Source: Asterias rubens (Eukaryota). From it: a stretch of DNA of 64,000 bases. The notes below the pieces were generated by a model. It worked only from the letters and a program-made list of their open reading frames with translations, had not been told where the DNA came from and searched no databases. The stretch covers positions 10,501,160 to 10,565,159 of the forward strand of contig NC_047064.1 of assembly GCF_902459465.1 (NCBI RefSeq). The letters are read 5' to 3'. Below are positions 1-64,000 of the stretch, in pieces. Positions within the stretch are counted from its first letter, which is position 1, and each line of letters opens with the position of its first letter. Position numbers and translations under genes: made by a program.

Positions 1-96
1 GGTATGTTTAGCGTCACACGCAAGGTTTACCAAAAGTGTCCAGTGCGCTTAAAAATAACAAATTGAGCTTGATATTAACTTGCCATGCATACATAC

Positions 97-233
97 CTTA
101 TCAGGGAAGTTATCAGTCCAGTGTTCAAACTGCATGGGAGTTCCATCAGCCCATTCATATGAACCATCAATCTTATTCAGTCCAATCCATGCATTGGTAC
201 GTCTCATCATGAACATCATGGCTTCTAGCAAAG
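97..233 (-). CDS. exon: CTLD16 middle part (WIGL..WxDG)
   Basis: S-LLEAMMFMMRRTNAWIGLNKIDGSYEWADGTPMQFEHWTDNFPDK; acceptor ttgccag|, donor GATAAG|gtatgt; phase 1 in, 0 out. The C-terminal exon of this domain lies beyond the window start. The polypyrimidine tract is supplied by a SINE tail. Confidence 0.65.
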
Positions 234-244
234 CTGGCAAGTTA

Positions 245-772
245 GACAAATAATAATAATATAATAATATCAAAGTCTTATATAGCGCACGTATCTACCA
301 AACAAGGTACTCATGGCGCTGGGTATATACAAACTTTCAGAAAGATTATTGCAGTGATGAATTATGAGACCCAATTGTGTACATGTAGGACCTTGAAAGG
401 GTTTACAAGGTGCTACGACGCATACATGTACGACATTGAAAGGGTTTACAAGGTGCTACGACGCATACATGTAGGACCTTGAAAGGGTTTACAAGGTGCT
501 ACGGCGCATACGGCAGCCACAGCCAGGAACACCGGGGTTAACACCTTCTCTTTTTCAATAAGTGCACTAGGTGCTTTTACATGCGTTTACAACACATGGG
601 ACCAACGGCATTTATGTCCTATCCGAAGGACAAAGCAATGGTTATGTCTTGCTTAAGGACACAAGTGTCAGGGCTGGGGATTCGGACCCACACTCTGCTG
701 ATCAGGAACACCAGAGTTTGAGTTCGGTGCTCTAACAGCTCGACCACGACCACAAATACATCACACAGATAA
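245..772 (-). mobile_element. SINE family A copy (tRNA-like head, body with 43-bp x3 internal tandem, (ATT)n tail)
   Basis: Tail aataataatatcaaagtcttatatagcgcacg at 250..300 and tRNA-like head ..ggacccacactctgctgatcaggaacaccagagtttgagttcggtgctctaacagctcgaccacgac at about 680..770. Internal ggaccttgaaagggtttacaaggtgctacgacgcatacatgta x3 at about 380..500. Same family at 12075..12645, 16415..16700, 28105..28412, 28840..29000, 33125..33470, 34300..34650, 40575..41010. Confidence 0.6.
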
Positions 773-1085
773 GTAGGATTTGAAACTTTGCAGGGTGGAA
801 ATACGATATAGAAAGATTTGCGGTGACATCATGAAATGATAATCTTTAAATGAGTTGGGGGTGGTTCTGAAAGGAACCAATGGTTTCAACTCGACGTTTT
901 GACCAGTATGCTTTGATCGTCTTCTTAAGAAAAAAGAAGAACAAAAGAAAGAAGACGATCAGAGCATACTAATGAAAACGTTGAGTTGAACCCAACGGGT
1001 CTTTTCAGAACCACCCCAACTCATTTAGAGATTACCAATAAATGGTGTGACCGCAAACCTTTCTATATCACACAGATAACAGAAA
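755..1085. mobile_element. MITE family G (long-stem foldback)
   Basis: Outer arms aggatttgaaactttgcagggtggaaatacgatatagaaagatttgcggtgacatcatgaaatgataatctttaaatgagttgggggtggttctgaaagg.. mirrored by ..ccttttcagaaccaccccaactcatttagagattaccaataaatggtgtgaccgcaaacctttctatatcacacagata. Inner perfect palindrome of gacgatcagagcatactaat.. type. Copies at 21790..22090 (complete), 30715..30925 and 37795..37990 (partial). Confidence 0.6.
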
Positions 1086-1573
1086 CAGCCTAACTAAAAA
1101 AGTTACATTATGAGAAAAGCAAGTACAGAGATAAGCTGTTTTCGCTAAAACTGGATGAAAGTGTAAAAAGAGGCCTAGCCTGGACATATTATGAACCCAG
1201 TATTGTTAAACTCAATGTGGTTAGGACCAACTTGGTCCCAGAAATGTGTACACGTGCGAGACTTGCACTGCCTGTTTACATAGAAATAATGCAGAAGGAA
1301 CCAAACTTAAACTTCAAGACTTAAGCCCGGCTCACACTTCCTGCGAATGCGGGTGCGAAGCAAATGTTGATGTCACAAATTAGCAACGAATAATTCGCAG
1401 CAGTTCAACTCTGCTCAACTCACTTGCGAATATCGCTGCAAGGGGGGTAACAACAAATTAACGTCAAATTCACATCGCATTCGCAGGAAGTATGATTCAA
1501 GCATAAGGCTAGGACTAATTTAATATGTCAACAAAAGCAAAAATACAAGAAACTGCAGACATAAGTGACTTAC

Positions 1574-1729
1574 ATAGGACATTCTGACCATAGACAGTAG
1601 CTAAGGTTCCACCCTTATTCTCGCAAGACTTATAAGCTTCAGTCCACGTTAATGATTCGGGCTCGTTGCTGCCAAATGCTCCGTAACATAAGTTGTTCAT
1701 CCGGTACCAATCTTTCTCACAACCGCCAA
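1574..1729 (-). CDS. exon: CTLD16 N-terminal part
   Basis: V-GGCEKDWYRMNNLCYGAFGSNEPESLTWTEAYKSCENKGGTLATVYGQNVL; acceptor ttccaaag|, donor CTAT|gtaagt; phase 1 in, 1 out. Confidence 0.65.
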
Positions 1730-2099
1730 CTTTGGAATGGAAAAACAACAAATATATTAAGTTTGACATTGGGGGTTTAGGTGGCAAGTGGTTTATTGCA
1801 CGGGAATCAAAACCCTGCTAAGCTCAATTTCAAATTCTCTGCTGCTTAAGAAGAAACTTTTGCTTGGCAGTTTTCGCTGCTCGGTAGAAAAGATCAGGAT
1901 ACTAATCACAGATGGTACTATAATGACGCTCAAATCGCATGGGCGCCGCCATTGTTTTCTTACCCCCCCCCCCCCACCCCACTACACAACGCTACGCGGC
2001 ATTTTAAACATAATGATTTCTAGCGAAGCGCTTCATCCCGCTAGTGTGACATGGTTTTAAGCTGGTATAATCTTTAGCTTTGCCAACTGTTGAGCTTGG

Positions 2100-2425
2100 A
2101 GGATCAGGCGAGTTGGTTTATGAAAAGGGTTTGTAATCGTTTCTTATGAAATGTATACGATTAGAAAGATGTTTTAATAGTAGAATATAATGATCCACAC
2201 AAACATTCATCGAAATTGTAAAACTTACACAGCACTTTAATTTGTGGAGTCTATTTGACTTCACAAAATGTCTGACCATGTTAGTTCTCAAGGTAAAAGG
2301 AAAACCACGCAATTTTGAGGCATATTTGTGTTGACTATATTCTACTTTTAAAACATCTTTCTAACCATGCATTTCATAACAAACGGTTTACAAATGCTTT
2401 TCACAAACCTACGATCCAAGGCAAT
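2100..2425. mobile_element. MITE family I (foldback; arms gaaagatgttttaa[at]agtagaatataatgatccacacaaa)
   Basis: ..cgattagaaagatgttttaatagtagaatataatgatccacacaaacattcatcgaaattgtaaaac.. mirrored by ..tttgtgttgactatattctacttttaaaacatctttctaaccatgcatttcataacaaacggtttacaaatgcttttcacaaacc. Copies at 31935..32045 + 32425..32745 (split by other sequence), 51935..52330 (complete) and 56680..56815 (half). Confidence 0.55.
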
Positions 2426-4249: not shown

Positions 4250-5927
4250 GGCGCAGTGACACAATAAACGGGGAAATGTTATGAAGTCCTCATTAGATGA
4301 GTCTTGAGGGAAGTTTTGAACAAAGCTATTGGTGGAGAAAGTTTAACATGATTCGGCAAGTCGTTCCATAATGAAGGAGCAGCAGAAGTAAATGATCTTT
4401 CACCCCATGATGTTCTGGCCAGGGGTTTCCTTAAAAGATGTTTGTTATTAGATCGCATATAGACTGGCGGTCGGAAATATGGGGTTGGAGTCCTTCTGAG
4501 AGATATGGTGGTAAAGTGCCTTTTGATGAGCGATAGACATACACAAGGATCTTGAAGAAGATTCTTTCCTTAAGTAGCCAATGTAGATCTTGTAGGATAG
4601 GTGTGATGTGTGCTCTAGTTAAGGAGTGTTTGTTCTACCACAAAAATATGTGCCTGTTTACAGTCTGAAACCCTTACTACAAAAAACACTGTGATGTATC
4701 AAGCGGCCGTGTTTATTAATGATCTTAAAGAAAACATTGAAGGATCAAAGAGATATTAACTCACCTGAGCTTTTGTCTGTTGAGAAAAAGCAGAAACATC
4801 CATTTAGAATACAATATAAAAAATAGCATGGAAAAGGTAGGGACTGTAGATTAGTAAATACTAACAAAGTTAATGAAATGAGGAATTGGTAAAGGAATTA
4901 TAGGTATCATAGTTCAAAAGTAGCTAGAAATACCTTGAAGGAAAAAATACTGAGCGCTTTAATATGCCCCTTAATCGCCCCTTAGGGGTCTGATACATGA
5001 CATTAAACTTAACTGTAGATTCGTAAAAATAATCTACAGTTGAGTGTAGATTCATTACAAACTTAAAGTAAATAGTTCAACTTGAAAATTACTGTCCCAA
5101 ACTGAAAGATGGCATGAAGTGCAACAAAACATAGCTGACAATATGTTATCTTTCAAATTACAGAACTAACCCAGTTTAGAAAAATCACTTTAGTAAGTAG
5201 AGTAGACTAACTAGTGTTGTTACTATTGAGAAATCCAATTCCTTGAAACTGTTACAAAACCAATGGGGGAAATAGTTTAAGTCAGAGAATAGACTCTAAA
5301 GTGTAGATTCGTGATTACAATGTACTCGCCTTCAGCTCGTACATTCTATTCCTGAATCTACACTTTCTCCTATATTCTCCTTTAACATATAAGAACTTAG
5401 TATTATTATTATTAATTACCATTTTATGGAGTATGGAATTTGACGCATTGCATGGTGAGGTATCAATAAACATTCGATTATAAGAAGAAACTATAAATAA
5501 ATAGTAAACTTGCGGGTACAACCATGTGTAAATCTCTTAAGGTGAGTGTTGGCTCTGAAAAAAGAGCTGGTTTGGTGTCGCCATCATGTGTGCATCTCCT
5601 TTCTTAGTAGATTATGTTCGTATGAGAATTTTTTTGCTTTAATTTTTACTACCGCTGAGCAGATTTTTTCAGATATCGGGAGACTTCTCAGTTCTGAAAA
5701 GAACTGCTTTTTAACTACCACCTGGGCCGTGGAGGTAGGAAATAGGCTGAGACTACTACCCTAGCTTTAAGTGGATTTAACTTCACTACCGTGAAATGAG
5801 TTTTTAGTTGGGTCTCAATGTTTCGACATAGCTTGCTCTAGTTATCGTCGGTATTATTATTATTATTATTTACCATTTTGATGAGGTTCCTATACACAGA
5901 CTATATCGGAAGGCATTGTGTACGTAC

Positions 5928-6113
5928 CTTTGGGTCTCTTGCAGACTAACTGCGAGTAAGAGGCGCATCCAGTGTCTTCCCACTTGCCGTACTCTGATGT
6001 CATTATGCGTACACAGTCCTCGGAATCCAGCTCGTTGTCTGGTTCTCCTACTTTCCAGTTTGTGTAATCCACCGGCTGACCGTCGTTCCAGAGAAACTCC
6101 TGCTTGTCTACAG
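5928..6113 (-). CDS. exon: CTLD15 C-terminal two-thirds (EPD motif)
   Basis: AVDKQEFLWNDGQPVDYTNWKVGEPDNELDSEDCVRIMTSEYGKWEDTGCASYSQLVCKRPK; acceptor cctctgtag|, donor CAAAG|gtacgt; phase 1 in, 1 out. Paralogous to exon 18792..18959. Confidence 0.7.
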
Positions 6114-7454: not shown

Positions 7455-7715
7455 CAGTTGTGTTACGTGTCAAGCCCAGCCACACTCCATAGTACCCATA
7501 TTTCTCTGCAGCTACCCTCTTGACGAACGCGTTCTCCCCTCTACTGTGGATGTTCAAGATGTGCGAATTGTCAAAGGTTTTCTCGCAGAAATAAGACGCC
7601 TCCCACCACGACACGTACTGCAACTCTGCTTCAAACATGTAGCAGTTGTCACCGAACCCTATCCATTTTGGGGGACAGTTGCCAGGAATAAACGTGGGCG
7701 GTGTTGGGGGAACCA
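7455..7715 (-). CDS. exon: Pro-rich linker + CTLD15 N-terminal part through WLGL
   Basis: MVPPTPPTFIPGNCPPKWIGFGDNCYMFEAELQYVSWWEASYFCEKTFDNSHILNIHSRGENAFVKRVAAEKYGYYGVWLGLTRNTT; acceptor gtggacag|, donor AACTG|gtaagt; phase 1 in, 1 out. Paralogous to exon 19991..20251. Confidence 0.7.
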
Positions 7716-9075: not shown

Positions 9076-9247
9076 TTTCTGTTGTATGACAGACAAATGC
9101 ACGTTTCAATGTACATTTGATAGAATCCCAGTCAGCACTGTTGGTCTGTACAACGCAACCCTCTCCGTCTTTTTCACTTGGTTCGTAATCAGCCCAGCTT
9201 GTAAACATCAATGGCCAACGATCAATCCACTTGAATGTACCGGTATT
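9076..9247 (-). CDS. exon: CTLD14 C-terminal two-thirds (EPS motif)
   Basis: NTGTFKWIDRWPLMFTSWADYEPSEKDGEGCVVQTNSADWDSIKCTLKRAFVCHTTE; acceptor ttttatag|, donor GAAA|gtaagt; phase 0 in, 1 out. Paralogous to exon 22365..22545. Confidence 0.7.
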
Positions 9248-9261
9248 CTATAAAACAAAAT

Positions 9262-9548: not shown

Positions 9549-9550
<2 letters not shown>

Positions 9551-10045: not shown

Positions 10046-10076
10046 CAACAATAATAATAATAATAATAATAATAAC

Positions 10077-10168
<92 letters not shown>

Positions 10169-10372: not shown

Positions 10373-10623
10373 ATCATTTATTGTCAAGCCAATCCAAGCG
10401 CTGTCTAAATTATTCTTGTACAACATGTTGGCCACGATGAACGCTTCCGAGAAGCCATCCCGGACGGAGGCCAGGGTAGCTGTCTGTCCTTCGCAGGCCT
10501 TCTTAGCATCAATGAATGACATCGGAGTAGTCATTAGCTTGAAGCAGTCGGTGCCATACTGGAGGAATCCGTTGGCTGGGCACAGGCCGCCAAAAGAGGG
10601 TTCTTGAGTGGGCAGTGCTGGAT
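10373..10623 (-). CDS. exon: linker + CTLD14 N-terminal part through WIGL
   Basis: D-PALPTQEPSFGGLCPANGFLQYGTDCFKLMTTPMSFIDAKKACEGQTATLASVRDGFSEAFIVANMLYKNNLDSAWIGLTIND; acceptor gcttgcag|, donor AATGAT|gtatgt; phase 1 in, 0 out. Paralogous to exon 23371..23615. Confidence 0.7.
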
Positions 10624-11227: not shown

Positions 11228-11333
11228 TGTATCTTACCCAAGGGTTTGTAACAAAGGTAGCCATGTTTTTCAGAGCAGTCAACGTCGTCCCATCTGCCAG
11301 GGTATGATGGATCATTCACCAAAACTCCACAAG
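11228..11333 (-). CDS. exon: CTLD13 C-terminal part (WDD..C)
   Basis: VDNACGVLVNDPSYPGRWDDVDCSEKHGYLCYKPL; acceptor ctaacgaag| (A at -3, less common), donor CTTGG|gtaaga; phase 0 in, 1 out. Paralogous to exon 24587..24698. Confidence 0.6.
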
Positions 11334-11574
11334 CATTATCAACCTTCGTTAGACAAAAAGGACACAGTATACAACATTACATTGTGACAAAAATACTTAT
11401 TACAAAGTAAACATTTTCTTTTTTCAATATAGGCATGGAATTACGGCAGTGGCCACTACTGAGGCCATGTATTCTGTTCTGTTGCCCTGGTCTTGGCCTT
11501 GGTGCCCATCATAACATTCTGAGAGACTTTCCTATGGAAATGCCCTTTGGGAAAATGAAAATGGCCTTGTCCTC

Positions 11575-12646: not shown

Positions 12647-12795
12647 ATAGGGATAGTTTGGTTGGTTGCTAGCCCAGTGCTGGAAGTCCACATTGGAGTT
12701 ATCAGACCAATGATACTCATAATAGTATCCTACTTTGTTGCTTAGTCCAGTCCACAGGTTCCCAGTGGAGAACTTCATCAACGAGGTCAATAAAG
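12647..12795 (-). CDS. exon: CTLD13 middle part
   Basis: S-LLTSLMKFSTGNLWTGLSNKVGYYYEYHWSDNSNVDFQHWASNQPNYPY; acceptor tgtttacag|, donor CCCTAT|gtaagt; phase 1 in, 0 out. The SINE-A tail begins immediately after the donor hexamer. Confidence 0.65.
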
Positions 12796-13531: not shown

Positions 13532-13792
13532 ACTGAACCGCTTGATTATGAATGGATGCAAGGCCTCCTCCCTCGTTTGCCTTACACGCAGTGCGAGCGT
13601 CGTCCCACGTCTTGAAATTACTGGTGTCTCCGTTGATCTGGTAGCAACCTTTGTCGATCTTGAACCACCCATTGGGGCAGTTACCTTCTGCGGGCGGAGG
13701 GTCAGGCTTCACAATCGGAACCTTGTTATTGTAATCTTTCTTGCAAACAAAGTGCTGTTCTATACCACAGTTAGTATCACCCCAATAGCCAT
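13532..13792 (-). CDS. exon: CTLD12 C-terminus + Pro-rich linker + CTLD13 N-terminal part
   Basis: D-GYWGDTNCGIEQHFVCKKDYNNKVPIVKPDPPPAEGNCPNGWFKIDKGCYQINGDTSNFKTWDDARTACKANEGGGLASIHNQAVQ; acceptor tgtccgcag|, donor CAGT|gtaagt; phase 1 in, 1 out. Paralogous to exon 27091..27357. Confidence 0.75.
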
Positions 13793-15521: not shown

Positions 15522-15616
15522 CATCCGCCATGTCAACACATTTCTGCATTCCCAGGCCGTCATTGGGTTGTCCATAATCCCAATTCGTGAAGTCACTTGG
15601 TGACGAATCACTCCAC
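15522..15616 (-). CDS. exon: CTLD12 long-loop part (QPN)
   Basis: R-WSDSSPSDFTNWDYGQPNDGLGMQKCVDMAD; acceptor tttcatacag|, donor GGATG|gtaagt; phase 2 in, 1 out. Confidence 0.65.
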
Positions 15617-16717: not shown

Positions 16718-16791
16718 CTGTATTCATCAACACTGTTACTATCGTCAAGTTTCTTTAATCCGATCCAGAAATAATTGTAGGAGTATGGAGT
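16718..16791 (-). CDS. exon: CTLD12 short WIGL exon
   Basis: TPYSYNYFWIGLKKLDDSNSVDEY; acceptor tttttcctccag|, donor ATACAG|gttggt; phase 0 in, 2 out. Required to connect phases of the flanking exons. Confidence 0.55.
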
Positions 16792-17148: not shown

Positions 17149-17318
17149 CAATCCTTTGACAAGTATCTGCTCCTGATCGTCGAGTATTGATGCCAGGTAG
17201 CCTCCTTTGGTGTTACACCATGCTTCAGCATCATACCATGTCTTCTCTTTGGTGTCTTCTACATAGTAGCAGTATGGACTAACAAATAGCCAATCAGGGT
17301 CCGTAGGACAATACGGTG
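17149..17318 (-). CDS. exon: CTLD12 N-terminal part
   Basis: S-PYCPTDPDWLFVSPYCYYVEDTKEKTWYDAEAWCNTKGGYLASILDDQEQILVKGL; acceptor ctaaccag|, donor GGATTG|gtacgt; phase 1 in, 0 out. Confidence 0.65.
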
Positions 17319-18791
17319 CTGGTTAGAAACAAAGTAATGTCAGTTGTTAAAGAAAAATTCGTTACCTCTAAAATAAAATTCAAACACAATATGTCAAACT
17401 TGGTGTCCTCTATGCAGTTCATGTTTTAATACGATTGTATATTCAAGCATCGATGTTCGGCTTCAAGTGTCTTATGCTGTTTATGTGCCGCAGCAATACA
17501 CGCTACGCGAGGGCGCAGATTTCACAGAGCTACATAAAAAACAAAATCTAGCTGAGCAAAACAAAATTATGCATACCAGAATTTAAAATAAAAAAATTGT
17601 TATGCAAGTCACTAGACAAACAAGGCCTGAAGGCCGCGTCAAGGTGTGGGTTACAATAAAAAAAATTCTAGAGCCCGTTGCCACCTACTCCTAGGGCTGA
17701 AACAGGGTTACCCCTTTTACAGTCCATACGGATGTAGGCTTGGGTAAGGTGACCACCCAAAAATGTTCAGTATGTTCAATTTGTGAATGGTATCCTACTC
17801 ATTCTGGTAAGCAGAAAATTGTGAAGCAATATGTTTTGCTTCAGCAGCTCTTTGAAATCAGGCCAAGGGCCTTGATGGGGGTAATCTAGCTTCTGTGTCC
17901 AGTTCTGAGAGCAGTTTTTCAGTGCATTAAAGAAGAGGACCAAAATGCCCTAGCTAGTTGGGTTATAGTTGCCAACACCTTTGCAGACCAGTTTAACAGT
18001 ATCATAGCCTCATAGAAGCTCACATTAAGGAAGGTTTTCCATTTTCAAAATGGCCGCCAAAGCCGTGAGGAGCAGAAATGGAAATGGCCCAATATCCAAA
18101 CAATTTTGTAACACATTAAATTTACCTATATACCAAATCCCTGGCTGTTATCATAAAATGCAAGATTGTTATTGGTTTGTGTGTTATGCTGCCTAACTAT
18201 ATAAACAAATTGACACAACGAAGTGGTCTTCAATCGCTGATCAAATGGCACTGGGGTTTTGCAGAATTGAAGTTAAATCTCGACACAGCCAATTTGCAGA
18301 AGTAGGTGCCGACCCAGGACAGAAAACGGCTCTTCATATTGTGATGATGAGCACAATGTTACACATAGTTAGCTCATAACACCCTTAGTGAATAATTCCA
18401 TAAAAAGATGACCATTACTGAAATCAAATTGTTGTCTTACGTTTAGTGAAGGGTGCTTCTGTTGTGAAAAGAGGCACTGTGGAAAAAAAAAACACAAATA
18501 TACAAGTTAGGTCAACAGGAATTTAAAAAGAAACAATCACACTATACATGTATATGCAGCTAACATTGAAATACACTGGACAAAAATAGTAGGTGTCAAA
18601 GACCAGTAGGGCTTTACCGTTTTTTTTTTAACCACCAATATACAAATAAAATAGCATACAAGCAGCCATAAAAGTTTGCGCTCAATCGGTCATCGAGGTC
18701 GCAAAAAATACAGTTAAAAACAGGTTGAAAACCACTTTAAGTAGTAAGGGGCTTCAAGAAGAAGAAAATATTAAAGATGAATGTAACTTAC

Positions 18792-18959
18792 ATTTGGGCA
18801 TCTCACAGACATAGTGGCTATTGACAGTACAGGATACGTCAAACCATTTGCCCTGCGAATCTGGCCAGATTTCTGCACAGCCTGCCGAGTCATCGTCAGG
18901 CTCGCCACTAGCCCAGTTGGTAAAAGCCACTGGGGAGCCATCAATCCACTTCCAGCCAC
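18792..18959 (-). CDS. exon: CTLD11 C-terminal two-thirds (EPD)
   Basis: G-GWKWIDGSPVAFTNWASGEPDDDSAGCAEIWPDSQGKWFDVSCTVNSHYVCEMPK; acceptor cgtttgcag|, donor AAAT|gtaagt; phase 1 in, 1 out. Confidence 0.7.
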
Positions 18960-19990: not shown

Positions 19991-20251
19991 CATTGTTACT
20001 TCGATGAAGCCCCATGATCAGCCACGACACGCTAAATGACTTCTGAGCCAGTCCCAGCACAAAGTGGTTCTCGTCCTTGCTGCTGATGGTGGCCAGATCC
20101 GCTCCGTAGTTTGTCTGACAGTCATACCGTGCCTCTGGGAATGAGCCTGTGGAGAAGAACCCAGATCCCATGATGTAACAGCTGGATCCATATGCCGTCC
20201 AATCGTCTGGACACTTGCCTTCTGAATCTGGAACCTTGGTTGGTGGGACCG
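19991..20251 (-). CDS. exon: Pro-rich linker + CTLD11 N-terminal part through WLIMGL
   Basis: A-VPPTKVPDSEGKCPDDWTAYGSSCYIMGSGFFSTGSFPEARYDCQTNYGADLATISSKDENHFVLGLAQKSFSVSWLIMGLHRSNN; acceptor cgaatgcag|, donor ACAATG|gtaaga; phase 1 in, 1 out. Confidence 0.7.
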
Positions 20252-22364: not shown

Positions 22365-22545
22365 CTGTGGTGTATTTGCAAGCTGTGTATGACTTAAGAT
22401 CGCATCCTTGGTTTGACCATTCGCCTGCCTCGGTGAAAAATCCACCTTCCTTCATGACAACACATGGTAAACCTATAGGAGACAACCAGCCCCAGTTGGT
22501 GTAATACAATGGCCAGCCGTCTATCCATGTAAATACTCCAGTAGC
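22365..22545 (-). CDS. exon: CTLD10 C-terminal two-thirds
   Basis: ATGVFTWIDGWPLYYTNWGWLSPIGLPCVVMKEGGFFTEAGEWSNQGCDLKSYTACKYTT; acceptor tctcttgtag|, donor CACAG|gtagga; phase 0 in, 1 out. Confidence 0.7.
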
Positions 22546-23370: not shown

Positions 23371-23615
23371 AGGGTCGTCAAACAAGCCAATCCAGACACT
23401 TTGATCCGCTTTCATGACCATGGATTGCAACTTGGCCTGCTCGTAACCGTTGCGGATCGAGGCCACGTTTGCTCCATCCTTCTGGCAGAACGTCTTGGCT
23501 TCCTCAAATGTCCTCTTAGTAGTGATGTCAACCTTGAAGCAGGCATCTCCGTACTTCTCGTACTCAGGCAAGCCGTCACACTTCGGCGGGGTGGTTGGAT
23601 TTGTGTATTTATCAT
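23371..23615 (-). CDS. exon: linker + CTLD10 N-terminal part through WIGL
   Basis: D-DKYTNPTTPPKCDGLPEYEKYGDACFKVDITTKRTFEEAKTFCQKDGANVASIRNGYEQAKLQSMVMKADQSVWIGLFDDP; acceptor tcatttcag|, donor GACCCT|gtaatt; phase 1 in, 0 out. Confidence 0.7.
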
Positions 23616-23689: not shown

Positions 23690-24610
23690 AAACAACAGTA
23701 AGGTACTACAGGGATGAGACTGCATGTTAGTACATGTACATATGTATCACCAGGTATCATGAGACAAAGTTAAAGTACTTAGAATGAGAATGCATGTTAG
23801 TTACCAGGTATCATGAGACAAAAGTAAAGTACTAAGGATGAGACTGCATGTTAGTATCACCAGGATTCATGACACAAAGGTAAAGTACTTAGAATGAGAC
23901 TGCATGTTAGTTACCAGGTTTCATGACACAAAGGTAAAGTACCAAGGGAGAGACTGCATGTTAGTATTACTAGGTATCATGACACAAAGGTAAAGTAGTA
24001 AGAACGCGATACTGCATACTAGTATTACCAGGTTTCATGACACAAAGGTAAAGTACTATTGATGAGACTGCATGTTATTATTACCAAGTTTCGTGACACA
24101 AAGGTAAATTACTAATGAGGAGATTGCATGTTAGTATTACCAGATTTCATGACACAAAGGTAAAGTACTAAGGATGGGACTGCATGTTGGTATAACCAGG
24201 TATCATGACACATAGGTAAAGTACTAATGATGAGACTGCATATGTATTACCAGGTTTTATGACACAAAGGCAAAGTACTAAGGACGGGACTGCATGTTAG
24301 TATTACCAGGTTTCATGACACAAAGGTTAAGTATTAAGGATGGGACTGCCTATAGTTTTACCAGGTATCATGACACATATGTAAAGTACTAATGATGAGA
24401 CTGTATGTTAGTATTACCAGGTTTCATGACACAAAGGTAAAGTAATAAGGTTGAGACTGCATGTTAGCATTACCAGGTTTCTTGACACAAAGTTAAAGTA
24501 CCAGGGTGAGACTGCATGTTAGTATATCACCAGGTTTCTTGACACAAAGTTAAAGTACTAATGATGAGACTGTACATTAGTATTACCAGGTTTCATGACA
24601 CAAAGGTAGC
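23690..24610. repeat. Minisatellite, about 56-57 bp unit x about 16
   Basis: Unit taccaggtttcatgacacaaaggtaaagtactaaggatgagactgcatgttagtat with about 10-15% divergence between units. On the gene strand each unit reads ..ctttgtgtcatgaaacctggtaatactaa.., which is the 3' end of exon 24587..24698 plus its donor. Confidence 0.8.
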
Positions 24611-24698
24611 TGTTGAGGGCCATACAGTCCACATCATTCCAGCGGCCTGGTTCCTCTTCCTCATTCATCATCAAGACACAGTCTGTTCGATTTCCCAT
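24587..24698 (-). CDS. exon: CTLD9 C-terminal part (WND..C)
   Basis: MGNRTDCVLMMNEEEEPGRWNDVDCMALNSYLCVMKP; acceptor gcataattcag|, donor ACCTG|gtaata; phase 0 in, 1 out. The 3' end of the exon is the first unit of the downstream 56-bp minisatellite. Confidence 0.65.
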
Positions 24699-38190: not shown

Positions 38191-38339
38191 CAGGTTGTCC
38201 TTCAGCCCAGTTGGTGTAGGTGACTGAAGATCCATCCATCCACTCATAGAGTCCTGGTGTTTTACTGTCGCTGAAACCGATGAAGAAATCATCGCCATTC
38301 TCCATTCCCAGCTGAGCACTCAGGAAAGACAACTCATAC
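38191..38339 (-). CDS. exon: CTLD6 middle part
   Basis: K-YELSFLSAQLGMENGDDFFIGFSDSKTPGLYEWMDGSSVTYTNWAEGQP; acceptor (caaa)n..tgttacag|, donor CCTG|gtcaga (weak); phase 2 in, 1 out. Confidence 0.6.
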
Positions 38340-39408: not shown

Positions 39409-39524
39409 TTGTCTTCAATGATGACCAGTCGACCACCAGCATTCTTGCATTGAGTACCAGCATCAGTCCATGTAGCCTTGGTAGAGTCCATCTTGTAGCA
39501 CACATCATTCCAGCCTGTCCAGCC
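39409..39524 (-). CDS. exon: CTLD6 N-terminal part
   Basis: GWTGWNDVCYKMDSTKATWTDAGTQCKNAGGRLVIIED; acceptor attgttgccag|, donor GACAA|gtaaat; phase 0 in, 2 out. The first Cys of the domain is in the preceding exon. Confidence 0.65.
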
Positions 39525-41045: not shown

Positions 41046-41153
41046 AGTTGGGCATGTTGCGGCTGGCAAGTGTACTGGGTTACCAGAAGAGAGAGGCTTC
41101 TTACAGATGGAGCTGTAGGTGTATCCTTTACAATTCAAGTCATTCCAGTAACC
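41046..41153 (-). CDS. exon: CTLD5 C-terminal part + linker
   Basis: GYWNDLNCKGYTYSSICKKPLSSGNPVHLPAATCPT; acceptor ttgacag|, donor CCAACT|gtaagt; phase 0 in, 0 out. Confidence 0.65.
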
Positions 41154-42235: not shown

Positions 42236-42393
42236 AATGTCAATGTACATCTCGACGCAATCTTCACCGTTGGCATCGTTGGGTTCATGGGCATACCAGT
42301 TGGTGTAGGTCACCGGAGTACCATCGGACCATTCATACAGCATCTCTGTCTTCTTGTCATTCAGACCGATCCAGTAGCGAGTGATGGTCTTTG
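42236..42393 (-). CDS. exon: CTLD5 middle part (EPN)
   Basis: T-KTITRYWIGLNDKKTEMLYEWSDGTPVTYTNWYAHEPNDANGEDCVEMYIDI; acceptor ttctcaacag|, donor GACATT|gtaaga; phase 1 in, 0 out. Confidence 0.7.
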
Positions 42394-42869: not shown

Positions 42870-43088
42870 TTTTTTCATAGATGTTAGCCCTCAGGAAGTT
42901 ATTGGCGTTCATATCTAAAATGGAAGCCATTTCAGCTCCTTGATTCTTGCAGGCTTTCTCTGCCTCAGCGAACTCCAGTATGGCTAGATTGGCAAAGTAG
43001 CAGAACCCCTTGTATCGACCCCAACCTTTGGGGCATCCCATGTCGGCACCAGGAGCTTTAGTTGGTATTGGAACTGCCACAGAGAAAT
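42870..43088 (-). CDS. exon: linker + CTLD5 N-terminal part
   Basis: D-FSVAVPIPTKAPGADMGCPKGWGRYKGFCYFANLAILEFAEAEKACKNQGAEMASILDMNANNFLRANIYEK; acceptor ttttggcag|, donor GAAAAAA|gtaagt; phase 1 in, 1 out. Confidence 0.7.
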
Positions 43089-44343: not shown

Positions 44344-44589
44344 CTCTCTCATAGTAGTCAAAGTGCTGCGATTCAAACGATGGTACAAGTCCTCCCGCCA
44401 CGTTCTTGTCGGTCTTACTGAGGTAGCATGTCATCTTGTTGCGTTCGTAGTCAAATGAGCGACAGGTGAAGTCTGTTTCGGTGACGCAGCGTCTTGCGCA
44501 CTCACTCGGAAAGATGTTCTTCAGCGTCTTGTCGTCGTTTCCAAGGAGCTGCTTCTCGGGGAATGAGATGTAATACTTGAAGATGTAAT
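44344..44589 (-). CDS. exon: PAN/apple-like domain (single-exon module between CTLD4 and CTLD5)
   Basis: D-YIFKYYISFPEKQLLGNDDKTLKNIFPSECARRCVTETDFTCRSFDYERNKMTCYLSKTDKNVAGGLVPSFESQHFDYYER; 4-Cys pattern C-x3-C-x7-C-x(10-11)-C with F/Y-rich flanks typical of PAN_1; acceptor cttactctag|, donor GAGAG|gtaggc; phase 1 in, 1 out, a symmetric module. Confidence 0.6.
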
Positions 44590-45177: not shown

Positions 45178-45303
45178 CATCACGATTGCAGCTGTACCCT
45201 AAACCACTTTCACAGTAGTTATCGTTCCACGTTCCAATGCTATTGTAAAACTGGCAGCAGTGTTCACCAGTGCTGGAGCCACCAAACCAGTTATCTGGCT
45301 GAC
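45178..45303 (-). CDS. exon: CTLD4 C-terminal part (QPD + WND)
   Basis: G-QPDNWFGGSSTGEHCCQFYNSIGTWNDNYCESGLGYSCNRD; acceptor atgttcag|, donor TGATG|gtaaat; phase 1 in, 1 out. Confidence 0.7.
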
Positions 45304-46402: not shown

Positions 46403-46519
46403 CTGGATTCCAGTCAATGAATACAAACGGTTTCTTGTCAGTCCAGACCCATCCTCCTTCTACTCCGAGGTCATTACATCCAAGCCATGAAATACTCTCT
46501 GTGCTCGTTTTCAAACGAC
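46403..46519 (-). CDS. exon: CTLD4 middle part
   Basis: S-RLKTSTESISWLGCNDLGVEGGWVWTDKKPFVFIDWNP; acceptor gtttaaacag|, donor ATCCAG|gtaggt; phase 1 in, 1 out. Confidence 0.65.
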
Positions 46520-47968: not shown

Positions 47969-48142
47969 TTGCGGCATACGTCTGATCAACTGGGTTCGAT
48001 AGACTCATAAGATCCCCTCCTTCTACACGGCACTGGTAGCGCGCATTGAACCAGTTCTTGTAGTCATATGGCCGAAACAGGAAACAGCGGTCAGACGGTT
48101 TGTAGTACTCCCAACCGTTTCCACATCGTGCGTAGTAATTCA
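47969..48142 (-). CDS. exon: CTLD4 N-terminal part
   Basis: M-NYYARCGNGWEYYKPSDRCFLFRPYDYKNWFNARYQCRVEGGDLMSLSNPVDQTYAA; acceptor tcattttag|, donor GCCGCAA|gtaagt; phase 1 in, 1 out. Confidence 0.65.
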
Positions 48143-49113: not shown

Positions 49114-49152
49114 TTGTAGGGGGAGGAGCATTGGTTCCACCAGACCCCGGAA
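49114..49152 (-). CDS. exon: short Pro/Gly/Thr hinge (13 aa)
   Basis: I-PGSGGTNAPPPT; acceptor ctccccag|, donor CTACAA|gtaagt; phase 1 in, 1 out. Needed for phase continuity between flanking exons. Confidence 0.45.
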
Positions 49153-49396: not shown

Positions 49397-49535
49397 TCTT
49401 CATTTTTTGGCAAACAAAGTAATACTTCTTAGTACAAGGGCGCGTTCTCCAGAGCCCGTAGTTATTTGCCCCAGAAACCATGGTGACACAGTCATCAGTT
49501 TGGGGATGGCCAGGACTCCAATTGTTGTAGTCATA
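49397..49535 (-). CDS. exon: CTLD3 C-terminal part
   Basis: YDYNNWSPGHPQTDDCVTMVSGANNYGLWRTRPCTKKYYFVCQKMK; acceptor tgccttcag|, donor GAAGA|gtaagt; phase 0 in, 1 out. Confidence 0.65.
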
Positions 49536-51320: not shown

Positions 51321-51409
51321 CACTTGAACCGTCTGTCCAAACGTAGGTCCCTTCAACAGCTTTGTCGTTCAGGCCTATCCACATCCACGAGCTGAGAGTA
51401 TTCATTCGC
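51321..51409 (-). CDS. exon: CTLD3 middle part (WIGL..WTDGS)
   Basis: V-RMNTLSSWMWIGLNDKAVEGTYVWTDGSS; acceptor tttcatgcag|, donor TCAAGT|gtaagt; phase 1 in, 0 out. Confidence 0.7.
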
Positions 51410-51934
51410 ACTGCATGAAATAAAGGAACAAGTGTTGCACAAGTTTTAAATGTCAACATTTTATTAGCAAACAGTGTCTGAAACAAAGATTTCAAAAATA
51501 GTTACAGAATTGGTATAAAAAACAAAAATCGTGAAGATCACTAATTTACATTAAACTTACACGGGCTAATGATGATGATAGTAGAAAACATCTCTTGAAA
51601 TATTTCTGTCTGAAATTTCATATTTGATGAGAAATAAATAATCTAATTTCGCGTTTTGAGTTTATCGCTCAGCGAGCGTTTTATTAATTTTTGTTTTGGC
51701 ATTGATGCAATGCAAAATTTGTAATCGTTTTGTCACTATTCTCTCGTGACCCAGATGGCTGATCGATCTCAAACTTCTACAGGTTTGTCAGTTTATGTAT
51801 ATTGTGGATTACATAGAGTGCTGTCACTGCCAGCAACTTTTTTGCTAGCAAAACCAATTCTGTAATGTTCCTTTAACTTCAAATGTGGTTTTCTCCAAAC
51901 ATGAAAGTTTGGCTGCAGTTGCTAAGTTTGCCCT

Positions 51935-53572: not shown

Positions 53573-53734
53573 CTGACATATATGATTGTGTGCCATCATT
53601 GTGTATACTGGCAAGCTCTGCACCTAGATTTTTACACTTTGAACTTGCAGAGTCCCAGGTGGACTGGGAGGTCGTCACCTTGTAACAGTAATCACCATGC
53701 AAGTCCCACTTCGAATTTTCACAAGAACCGTCCA
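53573..53734 (-). CDS. exon: CTLD3 N-terminal part
   Basis: V-DGSCENSKWDLHGDYCYKVTTSQSTWDSASSKCKNLGAELASIHNDGTQSYMS; acceptor cctaaacag|, donor GTCAG|gtaaca; phase 1 in, 1 out. Confidence 0.7.
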
Positions 53735-55156: not shown

Positions 55157-55189
55157 CAACTCCGGGTGGCACTGGTGTCACTTTGGTAC
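55157..55189 (-). CDS. exon: short Pro/Val/Thr hinge (11 aa)
   Basis: G-TKVTPVPPGV; acceptor atgtttcag|, donor GTTG|gtaagt; phase 1 in, 1 out. Confidence 0.45.
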
Positions 55190-56510: not shown

Positions 56511-56585
56511 CCGCATTAATCTTGCAAATGAACGCACCAAGCATGAAACAGTCACCCACGGTCCAGAATGCATCATTTGAATCAC
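56511..56585 (-). CDS. exon: CTLD2 C-terminal part
   Basis: G-DSNDAFWTVGDCFMLGAFICKINA; acceptor ctttaatttcag|, donor GCGG|gtaggt; phase 1 in, 1 out. Confidence 0.6.
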
Positions 56586-57924: not shown

Positions 57925-58047
57925 CTGTAGTAATGTAGCCGCAGTCTTTAACTTTTGGGGTTAATTTTGGTTGGCCTTGGTTCCAATGTTTGTATGAACC
58001 CAGCTTCAAGCCATCCACCCATCTCAATTCATCATCCTTTGCCACAT
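57925..58047 (-). CDS. exon: CTLD2 long-loop part
   Basis: D-VAKDDELRWVDGLKLGSYKHWNQGQPKLTPKVKDCGYITT; acceptor cactatacag|, donor ACAG|gtatac; phase 1 in, 1 out. Confidence 0.65.
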
Positions 58048-59365: not shown

Positions 59366-59448
59366 CTGATAAGCCAAAGTAAAGTACATTGATGTTCTGG
59401 TTGTTCATGTCCACAAGAAACTGCTTGAAGAAATTGTTTTCAGCGTCA
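59366..59448 (-). CDS. exon: CTLD2 short (W/Y)xGL exon
   Basis: T-DAENNFFKQFLVDMNNQNINVLYFGLS; acceptor gaaattgcag|, donor TATCAG|gttggt; phase 2 in, 1 out. Found by requiring phase continuity between 61393..61522 and 57925..58047. Confidence 0.55.
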
Positions 59449-61392: not shown

Positions 61393-61522
61393 GTTTTAAT
61401 TGTAGCCAGATATGCAGACTGCTGAGTACAGTAGTCCTTGGCATCAGTCCACGTCATTGGTGTATTGGAATTGACTTGATAGCATTGTCCATTGAAGAAA
61501 TGCCAACCTTGTGCGCATGCAC
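61393..61522 (-). CDS. exon: CTLD2 N-terminal part
   Basis: G-ACAQGWHFFNGQCYQVNSNTPMTWTDAKDYCTQQSAYLATIK; acceptor ttgtttgtag|, donor AAAAC|gtaagt; phase 1 in, 2 out. Confidence 0.65.
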
Positions 61523-61785: not shown

Positions 61786-61895
61786 GAATATGTTCATGAG
61801 TTGAAAGATGGAATGTTCTATTCAACGAGGCGGAGCCGAGTTGAATGGAACATTCCAGCTTTCAACGAATGAACATATTCGCACCATTGCACGAA
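61786..61895. repeat. 110-bp near-perfect palindrome
   Basis: tgcaatggtgcgaatatgttcatgagttgaaagatggaatgttctattcaacgaggcggagccgagttgaatggaacattccagctttcaacgaatgaacatattcgcaccattgca. Confidence 0.8.
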
Positions 61896-62085
61896 TGAAA
61901 AACATTCATTATTTGTTTTATATAACATCCAAGTAGAACTTTGTCATTTTGATTGAAAGAAACAACTTTCAAAACAAACAATTTCAACTGTAGAAGCCGA
62001 ATGCTAGTAATTTTACTATGCCTTCTTGCAGTAACACCTGCTGCGTTACCAAAGACACGCGCACGCAGTGATGTTTTTACTCAGC

Positions 62086-62200
62086 TTTTTCGTTCCATCC
62101 GAAAAGTACCATTGCACGCTGGCAGCGTGCCAGCGTGCAATGGTACTTTTCGGATGGAACGAAAAAGCACGGTGAGTGACTCAGCGTGCAATGGTACTTT
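62086..62200. repeat. 80-bp perfect palindrome plus a third partial arm
   Basis: ttcgttccatccgaaaagtaccattgcacgctggcagcgtgccagcgtgcaatggtacttttcggatggaacgaa, then ..cagcgtgcaatggtacttttatttgc. Confidence 0.8.
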
Positions 62201-62528
62201 TATTTGCTATCACGTGACGGACAATCCTCCAATCAAATGGCAAGGATCTGCTTGGGTGTTATATAAAACTTGATATAGAACATGATACGAGTTTCAGATT
62301 GAACATTGGCTCAGTAGAAATCATTCGTGTACTAGGCTTAGTCCCTATAAATAGGCATTATTTGGTTGTGTTAGCTATGGTATCCTCTTCTAATGAAGCA
62401 GTTCTTTGAAATCGGGTCTATGGTCCTATTTGTTGCCTTTCATCTGATTTGTAGAGATATAGACAAAGACGACTGCATGTGTACCTTATTTTGTATAGGT
62501 GTTTAAACTAGACTTAGTTACCACTAAC

Positions 62529-62632
62529 CTTCTGGAATAGCACACACGTATCTGCTCTTGTCCGTGCACTTTTGAGTGTACCAAGAACCGGTTGTCCTGA
62601 CCCTTGTGCAGTCGCCTTCCTTCCCATAGAAC
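62529..62632 (-). CDS. exon: CTLD1 C-terminal part
   Basis: Q-FYGKEGDCTRVRTTGSWYTQKCTDKSRYVCAIPE; acceptor ccgcatag|, donor AGAAG|gttagt; phase 2 in, 1 out. Confidence 0.6.
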
Positions 62633-63381
62633 CTATGCGGTAGTGAATTAAAAGTCATAGGTTATTTTCTTACGACTTGGTAAGGAATAATTCTTATACC
62701 CGTTTCATTATTGAAAAGGGAGAGACAGAAACTTGAAAACAACATAAGCCCTCCCTTTGCGAATTCTGTGACTATTCTATTCAGGCGGAAAAAACCCTTC
62801 ATGGTCAGAATTTTCCCTGTTGTACAGGCCTAATGTCAGAATTAAATTAATAAAATAAAATAAATGAGCAATTTTGCTTCAACAAAAAGATTCGCGCTTT
62901 GAGATAATGACTTTGGCGTTTTTGAAACTTTTTAGGGACCCAAACATCAAATGTCATTATTCAAACATAAATTCATGGCCGATTTGTATAATTGAATAAC
63001 TTGAATAACTTTTCGTTATCTTAAAAGGTTTTAAAAGATAATGCCTTTTCAAACTGAAAAACAACCATAAACTTTTACATAATACCACGGCATAAAATGT
63101 ATGCAACTTTAACAACTCTTTGTAACGGCTGAGGAATGGAGATAAGAAGGATTGCCGACATTACATAATTTTAGTGATTTTATATAATAGTATATCACTC
63201 ACGCTAGTTTAGTGTTTATAAGTAGAGTTTTGTTGTGCGATAATGTGGGCCAGCCTTAAATAAAAGCGTTTAACGTTTTCGAGTCTATGGAAATAGTTGT
63301 TCAAAATATTAATTAACATTAATTATGACTAGTATCAGCCAAACCTTTTAATCAATAATTTGATATCTTCGAAATACTTAC

Positions 63382-63479
63382 TGATTTGAAGGTTGATTTT
63401 TGTCCCATTTAGAGAAATCATTTGTTGCGTCAAATGCTGAATCGTCACTCCATTTATAAACGCCCTGTTTGTTACTTTT
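63382..63479 (-). CDS. exon: CTLD1 middle part (first exon recognisable in window)
   Basis: KSNKQGVYKWSDDSAFDATNDFSKWDKNQPSN; acceptor ttttttaacag|, donor AATCA|gtaagt; phase 0 in, 2 out. No N-terminal exon for this domain found in 63480..64000 (AT-rich, non-coding), so the gene continues upstream of the window. Confidence 0.55.
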
Positions 63480-64000
63480 CTGTTAAAAAAAAGGTAAGTT
63501 AAATTTTTGTTTTAATTGTCTGCAAATGTCTATTGGGATTATCAATACTTAAAAAAAAAATGATGCCTGTGAAAAATTGTCTGTCGACGTTGATAAAAAT
63601 AACACAAAAAAATATTGACTGGGCCTAAATTGTTTTCAAAAGACAAAACTACTGACAAAACAACTGATATTATTTTAAAATGACTTATTAAATTCAAATG
63701 TTAACTTATAACTTAGTCTGTAGCTTGAAAAACTCAGGCAACATGTAAAAAAAATAATTGCTTGTAGCTCAGCACTTTATTACTGGGCGGAGCCTCAGTA
63801 CATCAATCAATCATAGAACATTTATTTCAACATTGTTATGATAATACATAATACATACACCATTAAGTTAACACTATTATAACAACATATTTTAAAAGAC
63901 GAAATAATCATTTATAACAATATTAACTTAACGAAGCTTAGTTTAAACATTATTCACATAACAACATTGGGCAAAGGGTGAAGCAAAGCTTTTGTACCCG

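Follow-up and report, generated by a model that had tools for sequence, protein, structure and literature searches.

Central part of a probable single gene for a putative endocytic 19-CTLD membrane receptor in Asterias rubens

The 64-kb window of Asterias rubens DNA analysed here is very probably the central part of a single gene for a type I endocytic membrane receptor with 19 tandem C-type lectin-like domains (CTLDs) of the long form. The 49 exons in the window encode everything from the C-terminal portion of CTLD2 up to a point two thirds into CTLD17.

The reading frame in the window

The CTLD signal lies on one strand only. A jackhmmer search seeded with the CRDs of DC-SIGN and MBP-A, run against every stop-free six-frame piece of the window, matched 35 pieces on the minus strand and none on the plus strand. 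These pieces make up 16 CTLDs in succession, from 63482 down to 52. Exons were placed by tblastn and spliced alignment to the best homologue, a protein of Asterias amurensis; this gave 47 exons, and two mini-exons were added later. The final model (Table 1) has 49 exons on the minus strand, 6894 nt and 2298 codons without a stop. The frame runs off both ends of the window: exon 1 begins partway into the full protein's CTLD2, and exon 49 closes with roughly the last third of CTLD17 still to come. All splice acceptors are AG and all donors GT, with the sole exception of a GC donor at exon 25, and 32 of the 49 exons start in phase 1. Pfam recognizes 16 Lectin_C stretches in the model (E=1.8e-269) and one PAN_1 domain (E=8.6e-11; model aa 504-579, exon 15), but no FNII domain. 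No CTLD-like pseudo-exons were found outside the model in the 64-kb window.

A first-pass annotation had described a stop-free spliced frame, open at both edges and beginning mid-domain, with at least 16 CTLDs and an embedded PAN module. All of this is borne out, and its first and last exons are reproduced exactly. Its totals (46 exons, 6804 nt, 2268 codons) equal our model minus three exons. The difference of 90 nt indicates that mini-exons 25, 36 and 47 (42, 36 and 12 nt) were probably missed; that the 44 internal boundaries also agree is inferred from the exon, nucleotide and codon totals.

Table 1. Exons of the window model, in order of transcription (positions in the window).
Exon	Position	Strand	Length (nt)	Content	Remarks
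1	63382..63479	-	98	mid-CTLD2	frame open upstream of window; tblastn, 97% identity to A. amurensis protein aa 231-264; AG acceptor, GTAAGT donor; identical to A. rubens XP_033624652.1
2	62529..62632	-	104	CTLD2 end	XP_033624652.1 terminates by read-through into following intron
3	61393..61522	-	130	CTLD3 start	absent from all A. rubens RefSeq proteins; 97.7% identity to A. amurensis protein aa 299-342
4	59366..59448	-	83	CTLD3	internal Met is start of XP_033624651.1
5	57925..58047	-	123	CTLD3	
6	56511..56585	-	75	CTLD3 end	
7	55157..55189	-	33	linker mini-exon	phase 1-1
8	53573..53734	-	162	CTLD4 start	
9	51322..51410	-	89	CTLD4	XP_033624651.1 ends reading through consensus donor AGT/gtaagt (slash, exon-intron boundary)
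10	49397..49535	-	139	CTLD4 end	absent from all A. rubens RefSeq proteins; 91% identity to A. amurensis protein aa 532-577
11	49114..49152	-	39	linker mini-exon	absent from all A. rubens RefSeq proteins
12	47969..48142	-	174	CTLD5 start	Met at exon start is start of XP_033624819.1
13	46403..46519	-	117	CTLD5	
14	45178..45303	-	126	CTLD5 end	QPD...WND (galactose-type motif)
15	44344..44589	-	246	entire PAN/apple module	single symmetric exon, phase 1-1; Pfam PAN_1; 100% identity to A. amurensis protein aa 730-811
16	42870..43088	-	219	linker, CTLD6 start	
17	42236..42393	-	158	CTLD6	EPN
18	41046..41153	-	108	CTLD6 end	WND
19	39409..39524	-	116	CTLD7 start	
20	38191..38339	-	149	CTLD7	
21	37566..37777	-	212	CTLD7 end, Pro/Thr linker, CTLD8 start	
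22	36380..36507	-	128	CTLD8	
23	35862..35920	-	59	CTLD8	
24	34037..34207	-	171	CTLD8 end	EPN...WND; 100% identity to A. amurensis aa 1195-1252
25	33004..33045	-	42	linker mini-exon	GC donor; in XP_033624819.1
26	30500..30675	-	176	CTLD9 start	
27	29604..29671	-	68	CTLD9	
28	27756..27859	-	104	CTLD9	
29	27091..27357	-	267	CTLD9 end, linker, CTLD10 start	
30	26276..26421	-	146	CTLD10	
31	24587..24698	-	112	CTLD10 end	
32	23371..23615	-	245	linker, CTLD11 first half	
33	22365..22545	-	181	CTLD11 second half	
34	19991..20251	-	261	linker, CTLD12 first half	
35	18792..18959	-	168	CTLD12 second half	
36	18441..18476	-	36	linker mini-exon	LPLFTTEAPFTK; in XP_033624819.1
37	17149..17318	-	170	CTLD13 start	
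38	16718..16791	-	74	CTLD13	
39	15522..15616	-	95	CTLD13	
40	13532..13792	-	261	CTLD13 end, linker, CTLD14 start	
41	12647..12795	-	149	CTLD14	
42	11238..11343	-	106	CTLD14 end	
43	10373..10623	-	251	linker, CTLD15 first half	100% identity to A. amurensis aa 2139-2222
44	9076..9247	-	172	CTLD15 second half	
45	7455..7715	-	261	linker, CTLD16 first half	
46	5928..6113	-	186	CTLD16 second half	
47	4765..4776	-	12	micro-exon	DKSS; in XP_033624819.1
48	1574..1729	-	156	CTLD17 start	
49	97..233	-	137	mid-CTLD17	frame open; gene runs past window edge

The introns are rich in interspersed repeats and hold one minisatellite and one perfect palindrome. The last 19 nt of exon 31, together with its 5' splice site, recur in about 15 copies in the next intron.

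Could the array be a decaying pseudogene, or an assembly artefact of duplicated CTLD exons? Beyond the intronic repeats, minisatellite and palindrome, nothing specific speaks for this, and we give it almost no credence. Over 2298 codons the modelled frame has no stop, whereas the alternative frames of the 47-exon concatenate have 86 and 187, and the protein is 97.4% identical to that of A. amurensis. The CTLDs are only 21–42% identical to one another, so there are no recent duplicates among them; nor are there exon-level DNA repeats or N characters in the window. The open frame and its conservation effectively refute the idea. Within the array, CTLD9-12 match CTLD13-16, and CTLD14-15 match CTLD17-18. 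Old internal duplication built up the array, whose modules are joined via phase-1 introns.

One gene, three RefSeq models

Apart from about 115 codons, A. rubens RefSeq already covers the coding sequence of the window, which it divides among three models: XP_033624652.1 (299 aa), XP_033624651.1 (184 aa) and XP_033624819.1 (2343 aa). Model residues 359-2298 are identical to residues 1-1940 of the largest over 1940 consecutive positions, and residues 1-68 and 125-299 match the two smaller ones, in that order, at 100%.

The orthologues tell of one gene. In A. amurensis, these exons, in unchanged order, encode a single 2933-aa protein (XP_071789139.1; 97.4% identity over 2282 aligned residues), from a gene with an annotated span of 110 kb. 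CTLD1-18 pair one-to-one and in order with a single Acanthaster planci protein (2825 aa; 42–64% per domain) and, likewise, with a single protein of Patiria miniata (2642 aa). Two paralogues (P0004 and P0005) also preserve this order across almost the entire CTLD1-16 stretch. On the strength of the single A. amurensis protein and the Acanthaster and Patiria orthologues with the same domain order, we consider the single-gene reading well supported. The first-pass claim that a single gene exceeds the window and codes for far more than 2300 aa is supported.

That annotation had also set several short genes against its own reading, and RefSeq does hold three models here. Taken at face value, these would be independent genes with their own starts and ends: one for a short secreted lectin with two CTLDs (299 aa), one for a 184-aa product and one for a membrane protein of 2343 aa. 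All three map inside the window, the two smaller ones meet in-frame stops shortly after entering introns 2 and 9, and A. amurensis isoform X2 shares its initiator Met with the 184-aa model. Nevertheless, we regard three genes as very improbable. The 184-aa model starts inside CTLD3, without the first cysteines of that domain, and the 2343-aa model begins 6 residues ahead of CTLD5; neither has a signal peptide, despite their extracellular, disulfide-bonded modules. Exons 3, 10 and 11, which the trio leaves unused, are intact, with good splice sites and 91–98% identity to A. amurensis. Moreover, the donors at both break points are strong sites, poly(A)-like hexamers occur in introns 2 and 9 at background rate only, and four other annotated sea-star proteins contain the complete array with its order unchanged. 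Given two models without a signal peptide, a start within CTLD3 and the omission of the conserved exons 3, 10 and 11, we read the trio as fragmented predictions of one gene. Since the predicted isoform X2 shares its internal Met with XP_033624651.1, a transcript might start near exon 4.

The composite protein and its 3' end

When the window model is extended on either side with the adjoining RefSeq fragments, the result is a composite type I membrane protein of 2932 aa with a signal peptide, 19 CTLDs and one PAN/apple module between CTLD5 and CTLD6. Beyond exon 49, coding continues as residues 1941-2343 of XP_033624819.1. The C-terminus has one transmembrane helix followed by a tail of about 45 residues with the sequence GFDNVLY. 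Signal peptide, helix and tail lie outside the window and are tied to it via the RefSeq models and the orthologue.

A further reading, which extends the single-gene explanation and does not exclude it, is that the gene has alternative 3' ends. CTLD18 would be followed either by CTLD19, transmembrane helix and tail (19 CTLDs, ~2930 aa) or by a downstream six-CTLD cassette with its own transmembrane helix and FDNVLY tail (24 CTLDs, ~3630 aa). We hold this as a tentative possibility, somewhat short of an even chance. In A. amurensis, two isoforms, X1 (3633 aa) and X2 (3278 aa), run from CTLD18 straight into the cassette, and the gene is annotated across 110 kb. In A. rubens the cassette is annotated as a neighbouring gene (XP_033625168.1, 916 aa), among whose CTLDs CTLD17 and 18 have their nearest relatives (63% and 55% identity). 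Its product opens with MDSYCYK, inside a CTLD and without a signal peptide, and is therefore not plausible as a stand-alone gene. However, X1 and X2 are automated predictions that may have fused two tandem paralogues by read-through, and the cassette region, outside the window, is represented here by predicted proteins.

Predicted function and relatives

The product of the single gene is likely to be a type I endocytic lectin receptor that acts like members of the mannose-receptor family. Motifs and analogy point to a cell-surface, constitutively recycling multi-lectin receptor. In A. rubens, A. amurensis and Acanthaster, EPN/WND or QPD/WND is kept at CTLD1, 5, 6 and 8. The Patiria model has no CTLD1 but keeps the motifs at the other three. 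Calcium-dependent sugar binding would probably be confined to the CTLDs that keep this canonical site across sea stars: CTLD1, 6 and 8, with EPN/WND, would be of the mannose, GlcNAc or fucose type, and CTLD5, with QPD/WND, of the galactose type. The remaining CTLDs may be spacers or protein-binding modules. Through its FxNxxY motif, the tail could engage clathrin adaptors, so that microbes or glycosylated ligands would be taken up; among 124 large homologues, 68 have F.N..Y in their C-terminal tail, and every asteroid homologue is one of these. Sugar binding, endocytosis and an immune role are thus predictions from motif and analogy. In the literature, echinoderm mentions are family-level ("MRC1-like" transcripts in other echinoderms).

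The protein might instead be a structural, adhesive or cell-cell/matrix-binding molecule, most of whose CTLDs would bind proteins and not sugars. Indeed, 14–15 of the 19 CTLDs have no canonical calcium/sugar site, PAN/apple modules usually make protein or carbohydrate contacts, and Endo180 and PLA2R, of the closest known family, are collagen or protein binders. Yet four CTLDs retain conserved sugar-site motifs, the FxNxxY motif and short tail are conserved across homologues as in endocytic receptors, and the collagen-binding FNII domain is absent. We consider an adhesive role unlikely, and an endocytic receptor remains our preferred reading.

The gene is real and intact. The suggestion that it is unusual and may be undescribed is not supported: nearly all of the window's A. 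rubens coding sequence and the full-length A. amurensis orthologue are already in RefSeq, and of the 120 best homologues at least 37 are CTLD+PAN proteins. These have 9–19 CTLDs (median 13), come from echinoderms, hemichordates and one annelid, and are transmembrane. With its 19 CTLDs the Asterias protein is at the top of the range; one predicted isoform of A. amurensis has 24. Given its presence in public databases and its membership of a family common in echinoderms, we judge the gene ordinary.

The closest solved structures are FcRY, PLA2R, DEC-205, MRC1 and Endo180, with single alignments covering eight consecutive CTLDs. We propose that the sea-star receptor works similarly to the mannose-receptor family, although it lacks the ricin-type and fibronectin type II domains, and that vertebrate MRC1 and DEC-205 are its functional parallels.

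A spliced minus-strand lectin gene

The coding signal in this window lies on the minus strand. G+C content ranges from 37 to 43%, and there are no long prokaryote-style ORFs. C-type lectin-like domain (CTLD) motifs are confined to stop-free pieces of the minus strand: 12 of these carry at least two, and no plus-strand piece does. phmmer searches with the CRDs of rat MBP-A and human DC-SIGN gave matches that are nearly all on minus-strand pieces; upon jackhmmer iteration 35 stop-free pieces matched, 35 of 35 on the minus strand. The matched pieces cover the profile in a repeating start, middle and end order that describes 16 successive CTLDs, running from 63482 down to 52.

A pseudo-protein built from the matched CTLD cores has one match that is best by far: XP_071789139.1, the 2933-residue isoform X3 of Asterias amurensis, annotated as an "uncharacterized protein" and encoded by the same gene as the one in our window. 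tblastn of this orthologue against the window returned 43 colinear minus-strand HSPs that account for its residues 231-2530, mostly at 90-100% identity. With exon junctions optimised for GT/GC-AG sites, reading frame and similarity to the orthologue, the initial spliced model comprised 47 exons (6846 nt, 2282 codons) with 0 stops; read in its two remaining frames, this concatenate contains 86 and 187. The model is 97.4% identical to the orthologue over 2282 aligned residues. Two short gaps in that alignment led us to two further exons with textbook splice sites, which bring the final window model to 49 exons, with 2298 stop-free codons in 6894 nt. All acceptors are AG preceded by pyrimidine tracts. 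Donors are GT throughout (GTAAGT in most), the single exception being a GC at exon 25, which gives a GC-AG intron.

The first-pass annotation, made from sequence alone, had proposed 46 exons and 6804 nt. Its first and last exons are reproduced exactly here, and its totals are those of the window model minus the mini-exons of 42, 36 and 12 nt. The reconstruction was accurate; arithmetic on the exon and nucleotide totals suggests that the remaining boundaries agree as well. Its claim of at least 16 CTLDs and a PAN module is likewise borne out by a Pfam search of the spliced translation, which found 16 Lectin_C stretches (PF00059; 874.9 bits, cut-off 22.6) and one PAN_1 domain (PF00024; 42.0 bits, cut-off 21.4, E=8.6e-11, profile positions 3-74 of 76). 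Pfam searches gave no match to the Ricin_B family in the full-length A. amurensis orthologue, and none to fn2 (PF00040) in either that protein or the window model. Within the window, tblastn with six paralogues and with the composite protein (the window model joined to flanking A. rubens RefSeq fragments) revealed no CTLD-like sequence or pseudo-exons beyond the model exons. Moreover, ten long intronic or plus-strand ORFs gave 0/10 Pfam matches; neither a nested protein-coding gene nor a recognisable transposase is present.

One gene or three

Of the A. rubens RefSeq proteins, four fall into the 90% cluster of the A. amurensis orthologue, along with three isoforms from A. amurensis itself. The A. 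rubens RefSeq annotation divides this coding sequence into three models. Residues 1-68 of the window model correspond to residues 232-299 of XP_033624652.1 (299 aa), residues 125-299 to residues 1-175 of XP_033624651.1 (184 aa), and residues 359-2298 to residues 1-1940 of XP_033624819.1 (2343 aa), with 100% identity wherever model and fragment overlap. Two stretches are absent from every A. rubens RefSeq model: residues 69-124, from exon 3 and the beginning of exon 4, and residues 300-358, from exons 10 and 11, ∼115 codons in total.

The evidence favours a single gene, as first proposed, over this three-model split. The RefSeq models look like fragments: the 184-aa protein starts at a Met within CTLD3, the 2343-aa protein starts six residues ahead of CTLD5, and neither has a signal peptide, though both consist of extracellular, disulfide-rich modules. 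XP_033624652.1 and XP_033624651.1 reach their stops by reading through the donors of exon 2 (AAG/gttagt) and exon 9 (AGT/gtaagt), both of which are strong. The exons left out of the annotation are all intact, with 91-98% identity to A. amurensis; in that species the same exons encode a single protein, from a gene whose annotation spans 110 kb. Finally, CTLD order is colinear: each of CTLD1-18 is most similar to the domain of the same rank in Acanthaster planci LOC110978072 (42-64% identity) and in the Patiria miniata protein, and in 16-CTLD paralogues nearly all of CTLD1-16 follow this order. Poly(A)-signal hexamers occur in introns 2 and 9 at background rate and are uninformative.

Read-through of introns 2 and 9 may yield short soluble isoforms. 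There may also be a minor internal start near the Met of the 184-aa model, because A. amurensis isoform X2 is predicted to begin at that residue.

An alternative 3' end at the locus is plausible from the predicted proteins. In A. amurensis isoforms X1 and X2, CTLD19 and the transmembrane helix are replaced by six more CTLDs and a second transmembrane helix and tail, giving 24 CTLDs in X1. The A. rubens counterpart of this cassette is a neighbouring 916-aa model, XP_033625168.1, which likewise starts within a CTLD and has no signal peptide. Only tentatively do we go further and suggest that the locus is a single gene, over 100 kb long, whose two 3' cassettes are mutually exclusive, so that one promoter would give rise to receptors with 19 and with 24 CTLDs. 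If true, no homologue seen here would have a larger CTLD array, and its membrane-proximal lectin modules would be switchable.

For the A. rubens annotation, the single-gene reading means that the three RefSeq models should be merged into one receptor gene of ∼2930 aa, probably together with the neighbouring fourth. Merging restores the unannotated codons and provides the large fragment with a signal peptide.

Intron repeats and flanking genes

The introns are filled by several interspersed repeat families (80-330 nt, 65-95% identical, in both orientations). The minisatellite in the intron after exon 31 has a unit that copies the last 19 nt of the exon, its 5' splice site and also a TACTAAC box (CTTTGTGTCATGAAACCTG up to the splice junction, then GTAATACTAAC...). 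Since each unit copies the donor, this intron opens with ∼15 tandem decoy donor sites; read-through from exon 31 into the minisatellite meets an in-frame stop within ∼10 codons. The palindrome in the intron after exon 33 has arms that are 100% complementary, each with a match to the Rfam Histone3 stem-loop (35.6 bits, just over the gathering score of 34); the arm belongs to a repeat family with other copies in the window. The palindrome is a foldback element or else an assembly artefact.

ARAGORN called two intronic tRNA-like sequences tRNA-Ser(AGA), an identity we reject because 72-73 nt is too short for the long variable arm of tRNA-Ser. The tRNA-like sequences share 80-90% identity that extends beyond the tRNA part, and, instead of being functional tRNA genes, most likely represent the heads of a tRNA-derived SINE family. 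At the orthologous A. amurensis locus, a gene for a PARP/VIT/VWA protein flanks upstream, a Lectin_C gene (1108 aa) lies downstream on the opposite strand, and a 119-aa gene with no Pfam match is called inside an intron.

Features of the window (positions in the window; exons of the window model numbered 5' to 3')
Feature	Position	Strand	Details
Mini-exon, linker	33004-33045	minus	42 nt; exon 25, with the GC donor; used in XP_033624819.1
Mini-exon, linker	18441-18476	minus	36 nt; found from gap relative to A. amurensis orthologue; used in XP_033624819.1
Micro-exon, linker	4765-4776	minus	12 nt, alone within a 4.2-kb gap; found from gap relative to A. amurensis orthologue; used in XP_033624819.1
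PAN/apple module, exon 15	44344-44589	minus	model residues 504-579; confined to a symmetric phase 1-1 exon
Minisatellite	23744-24608		∼15.5 copies of a 56-bp unit; intron after exon 31
Minisatellite overlap with exon 31	24587-24608		last ∼20 nt of the exon
Palindrome	21847-22079		perfect, 233 nt; two 110-nt arms, 13 nt apart; intron after exon 33
Other copies of palindrome arm	772-860, 30744-30832, 37808-37896		
tRNA-like sequence	10717-10789	minus	intronic
tRNA-like sequence	10847-10906	plus	intronic
tRNA-like sequence	37133-37218		intronic
tRNA-like sequence	39630-39702	minus	intronic
tRNA-like sequence	59746-59817	plus	intronic
Interspersed repeats (sites include)	41276-41603, 50449-50770, 53769-54068, 54104-54431, 6207-6361		
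Microsatellite, (ATA)46	10042-10180		95% pure; intron after exon 43

Receptor architecture and its relatives

Joining residues 1-231 of XP_033624652.1, the window model and residues 1941-2343 of XP_033624819.1 gives a composite protein of 2932 aa. The signal-peptide exon and the gene's 3' end, both outside the window, are deduced from these proteins. The composite would begin with a signal peptide (MRSLQILALCSLLASAVAQ, assigned by inspection), with the first CTLD of XP_033624652.1 following immediately from residue 25, and would continue through 19 long-form CTLDs, with the PAN module between CTLD5 and CTLD6, to a transmembrane helix and a tail (KTRQTKSLLTDPGLPPTLGFDNVLYTPSSEEVKVDTKTGMSDA). 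The C-terminus of XP_033624819.1, outside the window, carries the hydrophobic helix followed by ...GFDNVLYTPSSEE.... A local profile picks out all 19 CTLDs, and 17 of them have exactly six Cys.

The pattern of similarity among these domains indicates that the array grew through block duplications that are old, not recent. Pairwise CTLD identity is low (21-42%) and the closest pairs are 10/14, 11/15, 12/16 and 9/13, with 14/17 and 15/18 in addition; there are no exon-level DNA repeats in the window. The exon layout mirrors the duplication pattern, with a fused "end-linker-start" exon in both CTLD9-10 and CTLD13-14 and two exons for each of CTLD11, 12, 15 and 16. Exons start in phase 1, the usual phase for shuffled extracellular modules, in 32 of 49 cases. 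The gene illustrates, with good resolution, the growth of ambulacrarian multi-CTLD receptors by block duplication and phase-1 exon shuffling.

Motif conservation points to CTLD1, 5, 6 and 8 as candidate sugar-binding domains. CTLD5 (QPD/WND), CTLD6 and CTLD8 (both EPN/WND) keep the site in all four sea-star species; CTLD1 (EPN/WND) keeps it in A. rubens, A. amurensis and Acanthaster, the Patiria model being without CTLD1. The QPD/WND site of CTLD10 is found in Asterias only, and in all other CTLDs the canonical Ca2+/sugar site is degenerate. The tail motif F[DE]NxxY, of the same kind as the FENTLY of MRC1 and the FDNPVY of the LDL receptor, occurs in 68 of 124 large homologues, every asteroid one included. 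The closest solved structures by sequence are FcRY, PLA2R, DEC-205, MRC1 and Endo180, and single PDB sequence alignments span eight consecutive CTLDs. From these three observations we infer, by analogy, that the protein is most likely an endocytic multi-lectin receptor in which few CTLDs would bind sugar and many would be non-lectin modules.

We found no study of, or experimental data on, this gene or protein in literature searched by accession and by Asterias with mannose receptor. At family level, and not necessarily for orthologues of this gene, "MRC1-like" transcripts are reported to be up-regulated in wasting-exposed Pycnopodia (10.1101/2025.07.05.662347) and in a holothurian coelomocyte cluster (PMC11925454).

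The architecture had been thought unusual and perhaps undescribed. Instead, gene and family are already in public databases, the architecture is unremarkable for an echinoderm, and what is new is a small annotation correction; no new kind of protein is revealed and no long-standing question opened. Among the best 120 matches, 37 combine PF00059 and PF00024. On sequence grounds, the Asterias protein belongs to this broad, automatically annotated, experimentally unstudied group of CTLD+PAN membrane proteins, whose RefSeq names are "macrophage mannose receptor 1-like" or "lymphocyte antigen 75-like" and whose members come from sea stars, brittle stars, urchins, sea cucumbers, crinoids, acorn worms and one annelid. 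Asterias and its relatives in the group share CTLDs that start directly after a signal peptide, a PAN module set among these CTLDs, and a transmembrane helix with a GF[DE]NxxY tail. The 37 PAN-bearing matches have 9-19 CTLDs (median 13), so that the 19 of Asterias stand at the top of the range, with 24 in the predicted isoform X1. The asteroid orthologues, Acanthaster LOC110978072 (2825 aa) and the Patiria miniata "lymphocyte antigen 75-like" protein (2642 aa), correspond one-to-one with Asterias in the order of CTLD1-18, at the same 42-64% identity per domain, and likewise place PAN after CTLD5.

Comparison with the vertebrate mannose receptor family (MRC1/CD206, MRC2/Endo180, PLA2R1, LY75/DEC-205 and avian FcRY) shows how far the likeness extends. 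Similarly to these receptors, the Asterias protein is a predicted type I membrane protein with tandem long-form CTLDs joined by short Pro/Thr linkers, a sugar site kept in only a minority of CTLDs, and a short tail (outside the window) with an FxNxxY-type internalisation motif; it also has roughly three exons per CTLD, apparently as in human MRC1. By analogy, then, it would work like a member of the mannose receptor family, yet it is not one: it has neither the N-terminal ricin-type cysteine-rich domain nor the fibronectin type II domain, it has 19 CTLDs in the composite (16 within the window) where the family has 8-10, and a PAN/apple module is inserted in its array.
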